A DNA stretch of 63,972 nucleotides, filler included, from Thermoplasmatota archaeon (GCA_041623215.1; 8 parts of 8 records of this genome joined end to end with filler, not necessarily neighbours in it); one strand, 5' to 3'. Positions 41,368 through 49,057 are shown, numbered from the whole stretch's first letter. Translations and numbers: made by a program. Notes: a model not told the origin generated them from the letters alone.

Positions 41368-41931
41368 ATTAGCGATGTCAAAGCCCAGGCCTGACGCCTT
41401 GCTTGTGAGCGTGCCCCACAGCGCCTTCTGTTTCGCGCCCCAGCCAAGTTGATAGTGCTGGTCGCCGCGGCGAATAACGGGAATGCCCCGCCGCCGGGCT
41501 TCGTCGAGCAGGAGGTTCAGGCTCGGCTCCGGCGCATGCGCCTTGACGGCCTCGTGGACACGCCTGATGGCCGCATCAACGTCGGGGGCCTCACCTGCAA
41601 CCACTTGGCGGATGAGGTCGCGAGCCGCAATACCAGCAGCTTCGCCGGCGTGTTCATGCTGGAAATCATGGACGCAGAACCAGTCGCCGTCCCCATCGAG
41701 CCAGCAGTCGAAGAAATTGGCCTCCAATCCAGCGGCCCGTTGCAATTCCACGCATGTCGCCGCGAGAACTTGGCCAAGATTGTCCGCGCGAACGCCCTTC
41801 AAGCCGGCGGCTTGCAAGCGCCTTGCAATCTCGGCGCCGTCTGCGTCAATGGCCTCGGCAATGACGACCCAGACGGGGGCATCATGGTACAGGTTGGGCC
41901 CTCGAATTGGACGGTGGCCGTACAGTTTCAA
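41368..41931 (-). CDS. Second cyanophycin-synthetase-like protein, 3'-truncated
   Basis: HRPIRGPNLY, VELQRAAG, EARRRGIP, YQLGWG.KQK parallel the CphA N and G domains; TTGA overlap with the cphA stop. Confidence 0.8.
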
Positions 41932-44588
41932 GCCAGCACCTCCTTCCGCCCCGCCTCGGCGTCCCGCTCGGCGTCAACCTCCGCTTGCAACTCGCGAACG
42001 CGGGCGACGAATCCTTTGTGGTCTTCGCCTTGGAAAATGAGCAAGTCGCCAGGCTGCGCGGCCTCGAACATAGCGTTGATGCAATCCCACTCATCGACGT
42101 GGCAGGTCACTCGGTCGGCCGGGAGTACCGTAAGCGCTCCTTGCGCGATGACCTGGCTCGTGGCCCCCTCCTCGCGCCCCCGCGGATCCGGGTCGCTAAT
42201 CCACAGGTAATCCGCCATCTTTGCCATGGCTACGCCTACCTGCTGGAGGTCGCCGTCCAAGCGGTTGCCCGCGAGGTAGCCCACGCGCAGAATGCGACCG
42301 TCAGGCCGCGGCTTGAGATGCGGTAGCACTTGGTCCAGTGCCTCAAGCGCCGGTACATTGTGGGCGAAGTCCAACAGGACCCTGGTTTCGCCCATATCGA
42401 AGACATTGAGGCGCCCGGGATTTTGCGTGAAGGACGAGTCGAAGGTTTGCAAGGCCGTGCGGGCGGCCTCTTCCGGAATGCCGATGGCGTAAGCCGCTGC
42501 TACGGCGGCCAGGCAATTGGCGACGTTGAATTGTGCGTTACCCGCCATCGTGATGGGAACGTCGCGCACTTCAGCTACCCGAAAGGCAGCGCGTCCGCGC
42601 TTGAGCACGATTGCTCCATCCTCTTGGGTCACGACAACGTTCTCTGAATCGGCGGCCAAGTGCTTGGCAAGAAACGGGTGTGCGGAGTCAAGGCTGAAGG
42701 GGATGATGCGCTTGTCCCGGAAGCCCTTGTTATGCCTGAGGCCTAGAACCAACTCATCATCCGCATTGAGGACGGCCGTGGCAGCAGCATCCGGGACTGT
42801 GCCCTTGAGCCGCGTCAAGTCTTCCAAGTCATGGATGTCGCCCTCACCGATGTGGTCCCGGCCGACGTTCAACAGAACGCCCACATCGAGGCGGTCCACC
42901 CCAAGTCCCCTACGAAGGATGCCGCCCCGGGCTACCTCGATGGCCGCAGCGGTGACTCGAGGGTCGCGAAGGACCATCTGGGCCGCCACCGGACCCGAGT
43001 AGTCGCCTCGGTCCACCACTTGGTTTTCGATTTCCACGAAACCCGTGCAGGCTAGGCCGACGCGGTGACCAGCCATCTTCATCATGTGAGAAATGAGGCG
43101 CACCGTGGTCGTTTTGCCATTGGTCCCAGTCACCGCCACCGTGGGAACTCGACCATCTGTTTCCTCACCCGCCCAGAGCATATCCACAATGTCTGCGGCT
43201 ACGTTTCGGGGCTGGCCATGCGTCGGTTCCAGATGCATCCGAAGACCAGGGCCGGCGTTCACTTCGACGATGCCCCCGCCCGTTTCTGTAAGAGGAGCAC
43301 GAAGGTGGGGAGCCACGACATCGATGCCCATAATGTCCAATCCAACCATGCCGGCAACGCGGCGAGCCATGGCAACGATGGATGGGTGAACATCATCCGT
43401 CACGTCCGTGGCGGTGCCTCCGGTGGAAAGATTGGCCGTTGACTTCAATACCACTTCTTGGCCGTTATTTGGCACAGAGTCAAGTGTCAATCCTTGCACC
43501 GCCAACATGCGTTTGGTGTTGCCGTCGATGTGAATCATCGTCAGCACCTTCTCGTGCCCGAAGCCCCGACGCGGGTCCGCGTTGGTGGCATCGATGAGCT
43601 GCTGAATGGATTGCTTCCCGTCGCCCACGACGTGGGCCGGGTCTCGCCTCGCCGCCGACACCAGTCGTCCGCCAACTACTAGCAGGCGATGGTCGCGGCC
43701 CACCAGGAATCGCTCTACGATGACGGTGTCATGGTGCTCGTGAGCTGCATCATAGGCCGTTCGAACTTCGTCAGCACTGTGGATGTCAGTCGTGATGCCG
43801 CGTCCATGGTTGGCATCCAAAGGCTTCACGACGACGGGAAACCCAAGTTTTTCCGCAACACGCACAGCTTCATCGGCATCTGCTACCGGACGCCCCTTGG
43901 GAACCGCAATGCCGGCCTCGTCAAGGAGTCGCTTCGTCCATGACTTATCGGCGGCAATCGCGACGCCCAAAGCCGTTGTTTGATTGGTCATGCTGGCCTG
44001 GATGGCCCGCTGCTTGTGGCCTTGACCAAACATGATGTGCGATTGAGAATTCATTCGCATCCATGGAATGCCACGCGATTCCGCTTCCCGCACAATACTG
44101 CCCGTGCTGGGGCCAAGCAGGCCACGCTCGCGTAGTTCCCTCAACTCCTGCACCAGAGCTTCAATGTCCGTGGTGTTGCCATCGATGAGGTCCTGCAACA
44201 ATCGCACCGCCATCTCGCCAGCCCGCAATCCGCAGTGCTCGTCGAGGTGCTTGTACACTACCGAGTAAATGCCGCGCTCGGTTGTCTCGCGCGTCTTGCC
44301 AAAACCTACGTCCATCCCGGCCAGATTTTGCAATTCGAGGGCGATATGCTCAACGATATGGCCGGCCCACGTGCCCCTGTCCAGCCGTTGGAAAAAACCG
44401 CCTGGGACGCCAGGCGAACAGCGGTGCGCGTGGAGACTGGGGAGGGCCTCCTTGATGCGTTGGGGAAGACCCGGAATCTCGTCACTGGGGGAGTCTTCCA
44501 GGGCGCCGATGTCCAGCTTCATGTAGGTCACCGGAAACCGGGCGTAGAAGTTGGGGCCGCGTAGCGCGCGGTGTTCCAAGATGTCCAT
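41928..44588 (-). CDS. cphA: Cyanophycin synthetase (CphA1 architecture: N, ATP-grasp and Mur-like domains)
   Basis: LRGPN, Cx19HxxEH, LGPST, KPLDANHGRG, ANLSTGG, EVNAGPGLRMH, GTNGKTTT, EVARGG, DFAHN; 886 aa. Confidence 0.95.
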   Translation of the reverse strand: MDILEHRALRGPNFYARFPVTYMKLDIGALEDSPSDEIPGLPQRIKEALPSLHAHRCSPGVPGGFFQRLDRGTWAGHIVEHIALELQNLAGMDVGFGKTRETTERGIYSVVYKHLDEHCGLRAGEMAVRLLQDLIDGNTTDIEALVQELRELRERGLLGPSTGSIVREAESRGIPWMRMNSQSHIMFGQGHKQRAIQASMTNQTTALGVAIAADKSWTKRLLDEAGIAVPKGRPVADADEAVRVAEKLGFPVVVKPLDANHGRGITTDIHSADEVRTAYDAAHEHHDTVIVERFLVGRDHRLLVVGGRLVSAARRDPAHVVGDGKQSIQQLIDATNADPRRGFGHEKVLTMIHIDGNTKRMLAVQGLTLDSVPNNGQEVVLKSTANLSTGGTATDVTDDVHPSIVAMARRVAGMVGLDIMGIDVVAPHLRAPLTETGGGIVEVNAGPGLRMHLEPTHGQPRNVAADIVDMLWAGEETDGRVPTVAVTGTNGKTTTVRLISHMMKMAGHRVGLACTGFVEIENQVVDRGDYSGPVAAQMVLRDPRVTAAAIEVARGGILRRGLGVDRLDVGVLLNVGRDHIGEGDIHDLEDLTRLKGTVPDAAATAVLNADDELVLGLRHNKGFRDKRIIPFSLDSAHPFLAKHLAADSENVVVTQEDGAIVLKRGRAAFRVAEVRDVPITMAGNAQFNVANCLAAVAAAYAIGIPEEAARTALQTFDSSFTQNPGRLNVFDMGETRVLLDFAHNVPALEALDQVLPHLKPRPDGRILRVGYLAGNRLDGDLQQVGVAMAKMADYLWISDPDPRGREEGATSQVIAQGALTVLPADRVTCHVDEWDCINAMFEAAQPGDLLIFQGEDHKGFVARVRELQAEVDAERDAEAGRKEVLA

Positions 44589-44711
44589 CGGCTCTCTGGG
44601 AGTCTACCGTTTGGTCAAGAAGGCTGCGGGGACTGCGTTAGCGTCCGCCGGGTGTTTTGAAGCGCATGCTAAGCCGCTCGAAACGCCGGTGCCTGCCTGT
44701 GGTCGCGGCGA

Positions 44712-46886
44712 CTATACGCCAAACTTACCCGCTAACCGGCTCCCTTCAGGCCAGCCAGCCGAGTCCGCCTCAACTTCCTCGCCGGGCCGAATGGCGTCGG
44801 TGGGGCAAGCATCGAAGCAGGCGCCATCGGCGATGCAGAGGTCGCGATCTACGCGGGCAATGTCGGTGACAATGGCGGCGTCCGTGGGGCAGGCGGCCTC
44901 ACAGCCGTTGCACACGATACAGTCGGCCGCGAACACCCATGCCTTGTCGGCTTCCGGCGTGTTCTTGGCCATCTCCAGCACCTGCTCCTTGGTCATCTTG
45001 CCGTCGTCGCCGCCGTCGCCGCCCGTGGCAACATCGACCGCCTCTTCCACCACTTCAACAGCCTTGACGTCGAGCTCTACGCCGGCGGCGGTGACTTCCC
45101 TGCGCAAGGCATCGAGGACGGGTTGAATCTTATCAAAGTCAGGAGCGACCGTCGCTTCCTCGAGGGCAGGGTCGGCTACGTCGAGTGCCGGCTTCAGGGT
45201 GGCCGGGTCCGTAATCTTCGATTGACAGAACGCCTTGGCTAGGACCATCTTGCCGCGCACCGTGTGCGTCATCGGCAGATTGCCGGGATTGGGAAGCGCC
45301 TGCAAGCTCGGCAAGTCGCAGCCCCAGACCTGGTCCGTGAACAACGCCAATTCGCCGCCACGCGACAAGTCGCCCGCCACATCGGCTGCTTTGACGCCGA
45401 CGGTCTTGTGGCGCTGGTAGGGCATCATTCCCCCCGCCATTTGGAGCATGGGATTGCCAGCCCACAATTGGAAACCCAAACTGGGCGCGGGGACCGGTTG
45501 CTGGACGGCCGCTTTGTGGATGAATTCGGGCACGGGCGCGGGCATGGGGAAGACGGCGCCGGGATTCATGAGGTTGCGGCGGTCCATTTGCCGCTTGGCA
45601 TCCTTCATGCGAGCATACCGGGCCTTGCCGAAGATGCTCTTCGATTCCCATTGCAGCCATACACCCGATTGGTAGGCCGTGCCGCCGAGTTTCTTTGCCA
45701 ACGCCAGAATCCAGGCGCTGGTCCCCCAGCCAAGCGGGTAATTGGGGCGCCGCTCGTCGTCGAGGCCGTAAATGAAGAAGTAAACGCGGCCATCGTCCGT
45801 GACATGGCCTTCAACCGCCAAGTCTGCGACGGCGACCTTCGCCCGCAGCCGCTTGAGGTAGGGCGCGAGCTTGGCCAAGGGGACAAAGACCTCGCCGGCG
45901 ACGAGACTGGGGCCCAGTGGCTTCGCCCGAATCGGGTAGAAGCGCTCGGCCCACTCGTCAGCGGCAAGCTTGTCGGCGGCAACCGAGCCACCGTTGCGAG
46001 CAGCTAGTCGCTCGACTTCGTCATCGCTAGGGGCGTTGGCATCGCTGAAACACAGCAGCACCGCGTCGCTGGTGCCAAGCGGGTTCTTCTTGACACCGAG
46101 CGCTTCTGAGCGGAGTCCAAAGAAATCGTTGTTTCGCAGCATCGCGTGCTTGGGTTGCCAACGGCTCGTTGCCTCTTCCAAGACCGCCTGCGCGGCCTTG
46201 ACGCCCGGCACCTGGATGAGTACGGGCTTGTCGGCGGTCGCTTCTACGACCCGAAGTTTGATGCTTGTAATCACGCCGGTGGCACCGGCGGCACCGACCA
46301 GGAGTTCTTTTTCGGGTGCGGAACGGCTACGGAATCGACGCCCGTCGGCCCCGATGCCTTCGCATTCCAACACCCATTTGCCAATGTTGCCCGCCCGGGT
46401 AGCGTGGATGCCATGCCCGTCGGTGGCGACGAAGCCCCCGACCGTGGCGGCCAAACCGCTCGTGGGATAGCAGGGGAGTTCGAGTCCCACCTCGAGTAGC
46501 TTCTGTTGTAGGTCCCACACGACGACGCCGGCATCGACGTTGACGGAGAGGTCTTCCTCGTCGATGTCGATTTGCTTCTTGAGGCCCGTGAGGTCCAACA
46601 CAACGCCAGCGCGCTTGGGCACGGCTCCACCCAGGGCAGAGGTGGCGGCGGCCCGAGGGGTCATAGGGATGCGGCGCTTGCGGCAGAAATTGACCACCAT
46701 TTCCACGTCGTCAATGTCGCTGCAACGGACCACTGCATCCGCCTTCCGGTTGACCAGGAGGTCGACAATCATGGGCGGCGAGCCAATGTCGCTCGAATAC
46801 ACGATGAGGTCCGCTTCGGACGTCAGGACGTTTTCGGCGCCCATGCGCGCCTTGAGTTGCCGGATGACGGAGGGCTGGAGGGCCAC
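44712..46886 (-). CDS. FAD-binding oxidoreductase (GlcD/Dld-like) fused to a C-terminal 2x[4Fe-4S] ferredoxin
   Basis: PRAAATSALGG, ATVGGFVA..G.G, GATGVIT, D..NLMNPG; CIVCNGCEAACP and CIADGACFDACP. Confidence 0.85.
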   Translation of the reverse strand: MALQPSVIRQLKARMGAENVLTSEADLIVYSSDIGSPPMIVDLLVNRKADAVVRCSDIDDVEMVVNFCRKRRIPMTPRAAATSALGGAVPKRAGVVLDLTGLKKQIDIDEEDLSVNVDAGVVVWDLQQKLLEVGLELPCYPTSGLAATVGGFVATDGHGIHATRAGNIGKWVLECEGIGADGRRFRSRSAPEKELLVGAAGATGVITSIKLRVVEATADKPVLIQVPGVKAAQAVLEEATSRWQPKHAMLRNNDFFGLRSEALGVKKNPLGTSDAVLLCFSDANAPSDDEVERLAARNGGSVAADKLAADEWAERFYPIRAKPLGPSLVAGEVFVPLAKLAPYLKRLRAKVAVADLAVEGHVTDDGRVYFFIYGLDDERRPNYPLGWGTSAWILALAKKLGGTAYQSGVWLQWESKSIFGKARYARMKDAKRQMDRRNLMNPGAVFPMPAPVPEFIHKAAVQQPVPAPSLGFQLWAGNPMLQMAGGMMPYQRHKTVGVKAADVAGDLSRGGELALFTDQVWGCDLPSLQALPNPGNLPMTHTVRGKMVLAKAFCQSKITDPATLKPALDVADPALEEATVAPDFDKIQPVLDALRREVTAAGVELDVKAVEVVEEAVDVATGGDGGDDGKMTKEQVLEMAKNTPEADKAWVFAADCIVCNGCEAACPTDAAIVTDIARVDRDLCIADGACFDACPTDAIRPGEEVEADSAGWPEGSRLAGKFGV

Positions 46887-46970
46887 GGCCGCGCGACTCC
46901 TGGATGGTTCTTAAGGGATAGGGGGGCCAGTTCGACCGAGCGCGAGGCCACCCCCGTCGGCGGCGTGCCC

Positions 46971-48104
46971 CTAACGATTGAGAATGGAATCTAGGAACCC
47001 TTTGCGCTTGGGTTTGACTTCCACTTGCAATTCTTCGGCCATGTCTTCCAAGAGCTCCCTGACCTTGTCGCTGACCTTGTCGGGCACCACGACTTTGATT
47101 CGAACATGCAGGTCGCCGCGGCCCGCGCCGCGCAGGTACGGCATGCCGTGGCCCTTGATTCGTAGGCGCTTGCCCGTTTCTGTGCCGGCGGGAACCTTGA
47201 GGGCGACTTGACCATCCAGGGTGTTCATGTCCACCGTGGTCCCCAGGACCGCTTGCGGGAAACTAATGGGGAGCTCGGTGAGCAAATCAGCGCCATCGCG
47301 GTGGAATACGTCGTGCTCCTTAATGGCCACCTCGACCAAGAGGTCGCCGGGCGGACCCCCGTGTTCACCCACCTCGCCGCCGCCGGCCACTCGCAGCACC
47401 TGGCCATGGTCGATGCCCGCCGGGAAGCGTACGTCCACCGTTCGTTCACGACGCTCATGCCCTGATCCATTACAGGCCTTGCAGGGCGTCTTAATGCGCT
47501 GGCCGCGACCTCGACATTCGGGGCAAGCGACGATTTGACTCATGACGCCAAACGGTGTCCGCTGCTGCGTACGCACCTGGCCGTGGCCATTGCACGCCGC
47601 GCAGGTTTCTACCGCGCTGCCGGGCTCGGCACCCTTGCCGTCACAGGTGCCGCAGTGCTCCATCCGAGGGTAGCGCAATTCACGGTCTACCCCTGCAAAG
47701 GCCTCCTTGAGGGTGATGGTGGCGCGCATCTGCAAGTCGCGCCCCCGTTGGGGGCCATGACCGCGACCGCCGCCGAAGCCGAATAAGTCCCCGAAAATGT
47801 CCGCGAAGCCGCCCATGCCGCGGAAGATGTCTTGGAAATCGGCGCCCCGGAAGATGTCCTCGGCCGAGTATTGCTGGTCAATCCCGGCGTGCCCGAATTG
47901 GTCGTACCGACGCCGCTTTTCGTCGTCGGACAGCACGGCGTACGCCTCAGAGACCTCTTTGAACTGGTCCTCCGCCCCGGCCTCCTGATTGCGGTCAGGG
48001 TGGTACTTGATGGCCAGTTTCCGGTACGCCTTCTTGATGGCGGCCGCGTCGGCCCCTTTGTCGACGCCCAGCACCTCGTAGTAATCGCGCTTACCTGTCG
48101 CCAT
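46971..48104 (-). CDS. dnaJ: Chaperone DnaJ
   Basis: RDYYEVLG, HPD, G/F region, four CxxCxGxG repeats. Confidence 0.97.
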   Translation of the reverse strand: MATGKRDYYEVLGVDKGADAAAIKKAYRKLAIKYHPDRNQEAGAEDQFKEVSEAYAVLSDDEKRRRYDQFGHAGIDQQYSAEDIFRGADFQDIFRGMGGFADIFGDLFGFGGGRGHGPQRGRDLQMRATITLKEAFAGVDRELRYPRMEHCGTCDGKGAEPGSAVETCAACNGHGQVRTQQRTPFGVMSQIVACPECRGRGQRIKTPCKACNGSGHERRERTVDVRFPAGIDHGQVLRVAGGGEVGEHGGPPGDLLVEVAIKEHDVFHRDGADLLTELPISFPQAVLGTTVDMNTLDGQVALKVPAGTETGKRLRIKGHGMPYLRGAGRGDLHVRIKVVVPDKVSDKVRELLEDMAEELQVEVKPKRKGFLDSILNR

Positions 48105-48239
48105 CTCTGAAGTCGGGTTCATGCGCGCTTCTATAAAACTCGGACGCCGGGGAAGCGCGGCAGCATTCGATTCACGTCACGTGCGCAGCAAACGGCACAG
48201 CACCACAGACTCAAACGGCGACCGGCGTTCCGCCCCCCC

Positions 48240-48752
48240 ATGACCTCCCCGGTGGTACAAGCGCTTCTTGACGGGAACAGCCAGTTTCGGCGCGAGGAAT
48301 GGGACCCACGTGACGCCACCCACAATGGCCGACCCAGCCGGCGTCTCGCCGTGGTCGCCTGCATGGATTCGCGCTACAGCATCGAGCGCGTCCTCGGTTT
48401 GGCACACGGCGACGCCAAGATCATTCGAACCGCCGGCGCCGTCGTGGACGAGGGCGCCCTGCGGTCCCTCGTGGTAGCTGTGCACGGCATGGGTGCGACC
48501 GACGTGGTGCTGCTTCCCCACACAAAGTGCGGCATGTTGGGCGTGGGAAACGGCGACCTGACGATTGCCAACGCCACCGGCGGGGACCCAGATATTGTGC
48601 AGCCGTGGCTAGACGGCTTCACAGATCTAACGCAACATTTGCAGGAAAGCCGACGTCGTATCTTGGAGCATCCTTACCTTCCCGACACCCTCAACGTGCA
48701 CATGTTGTTGTACGACAACGACACGGGAGCCGTCAGCGAGGTCCAACTGTGA
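48240..48752 (+). CDS. Beta-class carbonic anhydrase
   Basis: CMDSR and HTKC zinc motifs. Confidence 0.9.
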   Translation: MTSPVVQALLDGNSQFRREEWDPRDATHNGRPSRRLAVVACMDSRYSIERVLGLAHGDAKIIRTAGAVVDEGALRSLVVAVHGMGATDVVLLPHTKCGMLGVGNGDLTIANATGGDPDIVQPWLDGFTDLTQHLQESRRRILEHPYLPDTLNVHMLLYDNDTGAVSEVQL

Positions 48753-49057
48753 CGCCGCCTGAGCCGGCGCCGGCAGGCCCCACGCTGGACGATCTGCCCC
48801 CCAACCCCTACGACGAAGCCATGGGCCACCGCGTCACCAGCATCGGCCCAGACCATTGCTCCATGCAGACAGAAACCGGCACCACGTTTCACAATCCCAT
48901 GGGAACGACGCACGGCGGATTGTTGGCCGGCCTCATGGATTCCAGCATGGGATTTCTGGTAAGCAGCAACAACCCCGGCACAATCTGCACCAATGTTGAC
49001 TTGCAAATCTCGTTCGTTCGGGCCCGCCGCAAGGGGACGTTGACGGCAAAGGCAGAG
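48749..49057 (+). CDS. PaaI family thioesterase, 3'-truncated
   Basis: HNPMGTTHGGLLAGLMDSSMG; GTGA overlap. Confidence 0.88.

Follow-up and report, generated by a model that had tools for sequence, protein, structure and literature searches.

A duplicated cyanophycin synthetase with a predicted arginine-ligase-only partner in a Thermoplasmatota archaeon

Cyanophycin is still described as bacterial, yet about one tenth of the sampled Thermoplasmatota genomes match its synthetase, CphA. The closest described synthetases, CphA1 of Synechocystis sp. UTEX2470 (SuCphA1, Su; 7LG5, 7LGJ, 7LGQ, 7TXV) and of Trichodesmium erythraeum (TeCphA1, Te; 7WAC-7WAF), are single-gene homotetramers of N, G and M domains that carry the lid motifs GDRRD and EDDD(K/T)R and a glutamate at position 215. 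In the available parts of the publications cited in this report, CphA is called specific to bacteria in one data set (PMC11915815), archaeal cyanophycinases are reported without experiment (PMC9723716), tandem cphA copies are described in bacteria (Price et al., 10.1101/072470; PMC10687191), and 49 of the 153 bacterial genomes that possess cphA1, cphB and iaaA cluster all three genes (Sharon and Schmeing, PMC10206079); two further sources (10.1101/2023.01.09.523336; PMC7495880) provide context only. Our literature search, which left subscription journals mostly outside, returned no Thermoplasmatota CphA and no paralogue with an active M domain only among the matches listed, and in the literature covered by it no polymer was shown in an archaeon. 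Here we analyze a cphA locus in a 63,972-nucleotide stretch of DNA (the window, by which we mean the whole stretch) from a Thermoplasmatota archaeon (GCA_041623215.1). In the window, N linkers connect eight separate contigs, of which C76 of this genome, G000, carries the locus (window 41368-49057).

The locus encodes two copies of CphA, referred to here as copy A and copy B. The duplicated synthetase with its predicted arginine-ligase-only partner is the new part of the finding, and the archaeal cyanophycin locus as such extends a known case. The features on which the argument depends are as follows.

41928..44588, minus strand: cphA (copy A), 886 amino acids, an open reading frame (ORF) matching model TIGR02068; core residues intact in N (primer endopeptidase), G (Asp ligase) and M, with a changed M lid (YLAGNRLD)
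44346..44420, minus strand: Cx19HxxEH primer-generating metal site; C57, H77, E80 and H81 correspond to Su C59, H79, E82 and H83
43959..43961, minus strand: Ala210, where Te and Su have Glu215, a residue working across the G-G dimer; copy B has Asp here
43797..43826, minus strand: G-domain P-loop KPLDANHGRG with the catalytic His261 (equivalent to His267)
43104..43127, minus strand: M-domain P-loop GTNGKTTT
42255..42269, minus strand: M-lid motif GNRLD of copy A
41939..41943, minus strand: GGAGG, resembling a ribosome-binding site, within the 3' end of copy A and ahead of the copy B start
41368..41931, minus strand: cphA' (copy B), first 187 codons of about 788 amino acids; N site deleted

The original prediction, made from the window's sequence, had described copy A as a complete 886-residue CphA with an intact primer motif, and this description is borne out. 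The full N-G-M protein scores 1057 bits against TIGR02068 (cut-off 850), its structural model matches TeCphA1 (7WAE) at a template modeling (TM) score of 0.81 in Foldseek, and the minus strand of window 44346-44420 reads C-x19-H-x-x-E-H exactly, the primer motif defined in PMC9262961. Active-site residues were taken from PMC9262961 and PMC9427784 and mapped to copy A by alignment. Those of the G site (K220, K261, H267, R309, R323, N394, S396, D431, E450, G456 and R458) are all present. The same is true of the M site (N497, K499, T500, T522, E558, R561, D585, H586, R731 and H748), to which we assume R561 to belong. What copy A lacks is Glu215, the residue that gives a guanidinium contact from the partner protomer and whose place is taken by Ala210. 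Judged by its sequence, copy A is predicted to work like a CphA1, passing the tests for this enzyme except for Glu215. Two A-type proteins (P0021 and P0032) have decayed M-domain catalytic residues together with intact N and G sites.

Copy B was originally seen as a second CphA-like gene translationally coupled to the first. The coupling stands: its TTG start codon (41931-41929) overlaps the TGA stop codon of copy A behind the GGAGG sequence, which is found near the cphA/cphA' junction in all nine relatives compared as well. The notion of a plain second CphA does not, since copy B scores below the TIGR02068 cut-off and is devoid of the N site, of an active G domain and of G-omega. The pattern is also the reverse of that in CphA2, in which the G domain is active and a truncated, inactive M domain lacks the P-loop or lid. 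Copy B is hence neither a CphA1 nor a CphA2; it appears to keep an intact arginine ligase, its predicted M domain, with the ancestral lid. Its catalytically stripped G domain is under purifying selection, with ratios of non-synonymous to synonymous substitution (dN/dS) of 0.085-0.16 in three pairs, as obtained by simple counting with dS near saturation. One B-type protein (P0126) carries the source name UDP-N-acetylmuramyl tripeptide synthase; B-type proteins can thus be misnamed MurE, which could wrongly imply wall synthesis.

Complementary losses are found throughout the relatives of the two copies. For this comparison we used 25 A-type proteins picked from the tree (P0001-P0024 and P0032), nine B-type proteins (G006_B was left out, and counts of ten include it) and 23 single-copy archaeal CphAs, from which those of G280 and G292 (a separate clade) and of G157 (an internal stop) were left out. 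The N motif and all 11 G residues are present in each of the 25 A-type proteins; 23 of these also have the complete set of 10 M residues. The B-type proteins retain all 10 M residues (9/9), and the equivalents of K220, H267, N394, S396, E450, G456 and R458 are found in none of the nine. G-omega measures 75 amino acids in A vs. 1-11 in B. Among the alignment columns that are invariant in the single-copy enzymes, A keeps all 23 in G-omega and B none; A keeps 46 and B nine of the 53 in the N domain; and for the 33 in the M lid the numbers are 25 for A and 32 for B. Four G-core positions (Su 191, 210, 215 and 218) are retained in B and altered in A. The position of Su 215 is occupied by an acidic residue, either Asp or Glu, in all ten B-type proteins, by Glu in all 23 single copies, and by Glu in only six of the 25 A-type proteins; this glutamate is supplied by the partner protomer in TeCphA1 (PMC9427784), and an aspartate in its place is functional in CphA2 (PMC10273328).

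Each of the 13 genomes in which an A-type gene occurs has a B-type gene too, whereas the family's four single-copy genomes have none. In several genomes A and B sit on separate contigs; in G001, A lies at one contig end and B opens a different contig. On the M domain, A and B form one clade (support 99/100 with 41 rows and 99 with 72 rows), apart from the betaproteobacterial pairs. In one genome of the family the second copy looks different:

G006:C8, 11198-13750: second CphA copy of G006 (L026), with cphB on this contig at a distance of about 36 kb

This copy has lost the N site, has kept G-omega, carries changes at H267, N394, S396 and G456, and has an intact M site; by these features it represents, in all appearance, a half-way stage of the split. 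The A copy of the same genome keeps the RR of the lid and Glu215. Another genome also has a second CphA (L148, G131:C218); it is unlinked, lacks the N motif and carries the G loop and lid motifs.

Copy B runs off C76 at 41368. The end of C76 and the start of contig C157 share an exact 141-bp overlap that is unique in the genome, and the assembly of G000 contains 54 end overlaps of this kind. The copy B frame is continuous over the overlap (187 codons lie in the window and C157 has 647, with 46 in common, giving about 788 amino acids). In sequencing run X1, a single contig spans 41368-43860 and continues for 671 bases beyond the end of C76. After joining of C76 and C157, the order of the cluster is cphA-cphA'-iaaA-cphB, and a single contig of G003 has the order dnaJ, glcD-like, cphA, cphA', iaaA, cphB. 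The further features are:

G000:C157, 1-1944, outside the window: remainder of cphA'
G000:C157, about 1979-2878, outside the window: iaaA-like gene, after cphA'
G000:C157, 2881-3747, outside the window: cphB, after the iaaA-like gene
44712-46886, minus strand: GlcD-like flavin adenine dinucleotide (FAD) oxidase with a fused 4Fe-4S ferredoxin domain at its C terminus; neighbor outside the system
46971-48122, minus strand: dnaJ; likewise outside the system

The original prediction had named cphB and an isoaspartyl dipeptidase as genes to be sought. A cphB gene is indeed present on C157; its product scores 236.9 bits against TIGR02069 (cut-off 126.6) and contains GTSAG, which we take to be the cyanophycinase serine motif. 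Among 38 genomes searched, cphB occurs in 13 of 13 with cphA and in 0 of 25 without it, and it lies beside cphA in 22 of 22 further loci of the phylum. A candidate for the dipeptidase is present as well: the iaaA-like product is a hydrolase of the Ntn asparaginase type with DTVG (including the Thr nucleophile) and GRVGD, and its best PDB matches are isoaspartyl peptidases, but it reaches only 114.7 bits against the isoaspartyl peptidase equivalog model (cut-off 567). The genome also contains argG and arginase, so that the host is likely to be able to make and use arginine. In a relative, cphA/cphA' stand tail to tail with a LysX/LysW-type lysine-arginine biosynthesis operon (L029:44-8486, G035:C31).

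Because their active sites are complementary, the two copies are likely to be one two-part enzyme, and on balance we lean towards an A/B hetero-oligomer whose predicted product is Asp-Arg cyanophycin, serving to store nitrogen. We infer a hetero-oligomer because the G domain of B is dead yet constrained, and retains G-core positions that are altered in A. Copy A would make the primer and extend the backbone with its N site and its aspartate-adding G site, and copy B would carry out most or all of the side-chain ligation of arginine via an M domain with the ancestral lid. The two would pair via the G core in such a way that B's acidic residue, the equivalent of Glu215, is lent to the active site of A, while A's own residue 215 would face the dead site of B. 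CphB and the IaaA-like enzyme would degrade the polymer to Asp and Arg. A predicted complex of the A and B G domains (the B piece without its first few G-core residues) obtained a score of 0.01, with the mark at 0.32, which we read as evidence neither of binding nor of its absence.

Several observations weigh against such a division of labor. The argument from Glu215 is weakened because the acid is missing in 71 of 72 Halomonas-type CphAs (copy number was checked only in L039) and because SuCphA1 with the E215A substitution retains about half of its activity (PMC9427784). A role across the dimer is documented for position 215 only and is inferred for Su 191, 210 and 218. The M core of A is alive, with 10 of 10 residues in 23 of the 25 A-type proteins and a dN/dS of 0.07-0.09, and the new lid of A is itself conserved (Tyr in 21, Leu in 20 and Leu in 22 of 25), a pattern equally compatible with decay and with a function that was retained or newly gained. 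Moreover, the counts are not independent because the genomes are kin. The CphA structural literature consulted for the lid residues contained no arginine-bound M-domain structure; the lid residues are therefore interpreted by analogy to MurE.

An alternative that we regard as unlikely, but as the strongest of the competitors, holds that copy A is a self-sufficient CphA1 and copy B a separate helper or regulator, either a stand-alone arginine ligase or a scaffold, so that no stable complex is needed. It agrees with the match of A to the CphA1 equivalog model above the cut-off and the presence in A of every catalytic residue checked, with the ability of CphA domains to act in trans (PMC9262961) and with the RR lid and Glu215 of the G006 A copy. 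It leaves unexplained, however, the co-occurrence of the two genes in all 13 genomes, the overlap of start and stop codons, and the G-core residues that are kept in B but lost in A.

Somewhat less probable again is the possibility that there are two side-chain ligases, with B adding arginine and A, by virtue of its lid (YLAGNRLD...CEDH), another amino acid, yielding a mixed polymer. The lid reads GNRLD in copy A, GNRRD in copy B and in the single-copy relatives, and GDRRD in the CphA1s of solved structure. The original prediction noted GNRLD, which is indeed present, and took it as a sign that the added amino acid might differ. This argument half fails, since GNR is common to Halomonadaceae CphAs, to single-copy archaeal CphAs and to MurE of M. 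thermoresistibile (8G6P, with GGNRD at the aligned lid position); Asn replaces Asp in 22 of the 23 single-copy Thermoplasmatota CphAs and in 72 of 72 Halomonas-type CphAs. Peculiar to A are the Leu in place of the second Arg (22/25) and the Tyr-Leu ahead of it. In MurE, motifs of the GNR and DDNPR type bind the incoming amino acid. All 25 A-type proteins retain the first Arg (of GNR), and DPDPR, which aligns with DDNPR of MurE, is shared by most A-type proteins, B-type proteins and single copies of the family; both speak against a second specificity, as do the loss of M residues in two A-type proteins and the faster evolution of the A lid (dN/dS 0.21 vs. 0.075 for B in G017/G013, the sole measurable matched pair). 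In its favor are the otherwise intact and constrained M core of A, the spread of the lid changes across the A clade, an M-domain stem length of 0.29 vs. 0.10 for the core B clade, and reports that CphAs accept Lys, ornithine and citrulline (PMC8050183). Relaxation of the A lid, with B taking over, would be the simpler reading. More doubtful still is the elaborate version in which an obligate two-subunit archaeal synthetase, with B as side-chain ligase and A adding another amino acid, makes a mixed Asp-Arg/Asp-X nitrogen store, the half-way stage being preserved in G006.

That the polymer serves for export or at the cell surface, as Price et al. (10.1101/072470) proposed for the tandem betaproteobacterial paralogues, is very improbable here: their argument depends on an ABC exporter, on DUF1854 and on cphB being absent, whereas cphB co-occurs in the present case and our scan of 104 flanking proteins (with NCBIfam only) named no ABC exporter. 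Bacterial contamination of the bin is effectively refuted, for although C76 has no strictly archaeal marker among its six genes scanned, just as the original prediction cautioned, and Halomonadaceae CphAs are about 50% identical, the contig has an ordinary guanine plus cytosine (GC) content and tetranucleotide profile (r 0.979, median 0.964) and a flat depth of about 7 in run X1 (a marine metagenome that may be the source sample), and orthologues occur in 15 of 32 genomes of the family (one partial), adjoining archaeal genes in G001, G022, G029 and G007, the closest named matches being labeled Thermoplasmatota archaeon (P0006 is the protein of G006, of the same family).

The bin is 88% complete and 0.04% contaminated and contains an archaeal rpoB; a 16S gene was not found in it. 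The genes adjacent to cphA in relatives include those for Spt5 and archaeal SecE (G001, same genus), aIF-1A and the arCOG04150 KH protein (G022 and G029) and GGGP synthase (G007). The host is a Thermoplasmatota archaeon, presumably a marine one, and the locus is archaeal; the original proposal of a cyanophycin locus in an archaeon is upheld, and the locus is complete with cphB and the iaaA-like gene on the overlapping contig and the primer motif intact.

Among 61 relatives, G000 included, 15 pass the TIGR02068 cut-off (14 of the 32 of the family, besides one partial, and one of the order); in a sample of the phylum, 41 of 401 genomes match cphA at E 1e-60, with 35 of these exceeding the cut-off. 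Monophyly of the archaeal CphAs has a support of 68/63. CphAs from Halomonadaceae, Roseovarius and Salinisphaeraceae (L039, P0040, P0044, P0065, P0086, P0114) have a GNRR/DPR lid and form a 100/100 clade with those of Thermoplasmatota; an archaeal donor of the Halomonas-type CphAs is possible on this evidence. Two GDRR-type CphAs of another Thermoplasmatota family (L120 and L124, from G292 and G280) fall outside this clade and likely represent a separate acquisition. An A/B pair also occurs beyond the class of the window's host, in G116 of family f15 (L143, L151; 56% identical to the B protein of G001), which suggests transfer among archaea or an older origin.

Elsewhere in the window, contig C75 (37141-40616) carries nadC and an aspartate dehydrogenase gene, together with an archaeal phosphopantothenate synthetase that scores under the equivalog but over the subfamily cut-off. 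A 38-bp end match between C157 and C51 was not used; 10 of the 12 C51 ORFs were scanned and none is an archaeal marker. A sigma-70 scan upstream of cphA, with models that exclude archaeal promoters, returned nothing.

A comparison of A and B would test directly how CphA picks arginine because two natural M domains differ mainly in the lid, and this choice bears on the production of tailored polymers. With an M-only subunit, the range of reduced CphA forms would be complete, and the series from the single copy via G006 to the full pair would record a duplication dividing its jobs.

When set against the described systems, the locus resembles the bacterial cphA1-cphB-iaaA clusters of Sharon and Schmeing (PMC10206079) in bringing together the same three functions; that survey covers bacterial genomes only, and its available text contains no M-only paralogue, unlike the present cluster. 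Archaeal genes for both synthesis and degradation of cyanophycin were mentioned, in the available text without enzyme analysis, for Heimdallarchaeia LC_2 and LC_3 in a 2018 preprint (Bulzu et al., 10.1101/385732), which concerns another phylum. With the betaproteobacterial cphA/cphA' pairs (Cupriavidus, Acidovorax; 10.1101/072470) it shares tandem paralogues with complementary losses, but the origin is independent and the split differs, namely N | G+M there vs. N+G(+M?) | M here. Among 35 loci with two copies, 34 of them titled betaproteobacterial, all first copies contain the N motif and none the Asp site, their M-site counts being affected by trimming; the Asp site is present in all 35 second copies and the M site in 34, and these copies lack the N motif. 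The clade, the N | G+M split, the ABC exporter with DUF1854 and the frequent absence of cphB that characterize the betaproteobacterial module are not found here, as far as the exporter is concerned among the 104 flanking proteins scanned. To the CphA1s of Synechocystis and Trichodesmium, copy A is similar in its N-G-M architecture (42-45% identity) and in the primer motif and the checked G and M catalytic residues; unlike those enzymes, it is accompanied by a coupled M-only paralogue and has Ala at position 215 and the lid motifs GNRLD and DPDPR. Copy B, finally, is like CphA2 (Stanieria 8FXH/8FXI, Gloeothece 7TA5) a CphA paralogue cut to one active site, but in CphA2 it is G that remains, next to an M domain that is truncated and inactive (PMC10273328), so that copy B would be its mirror image.

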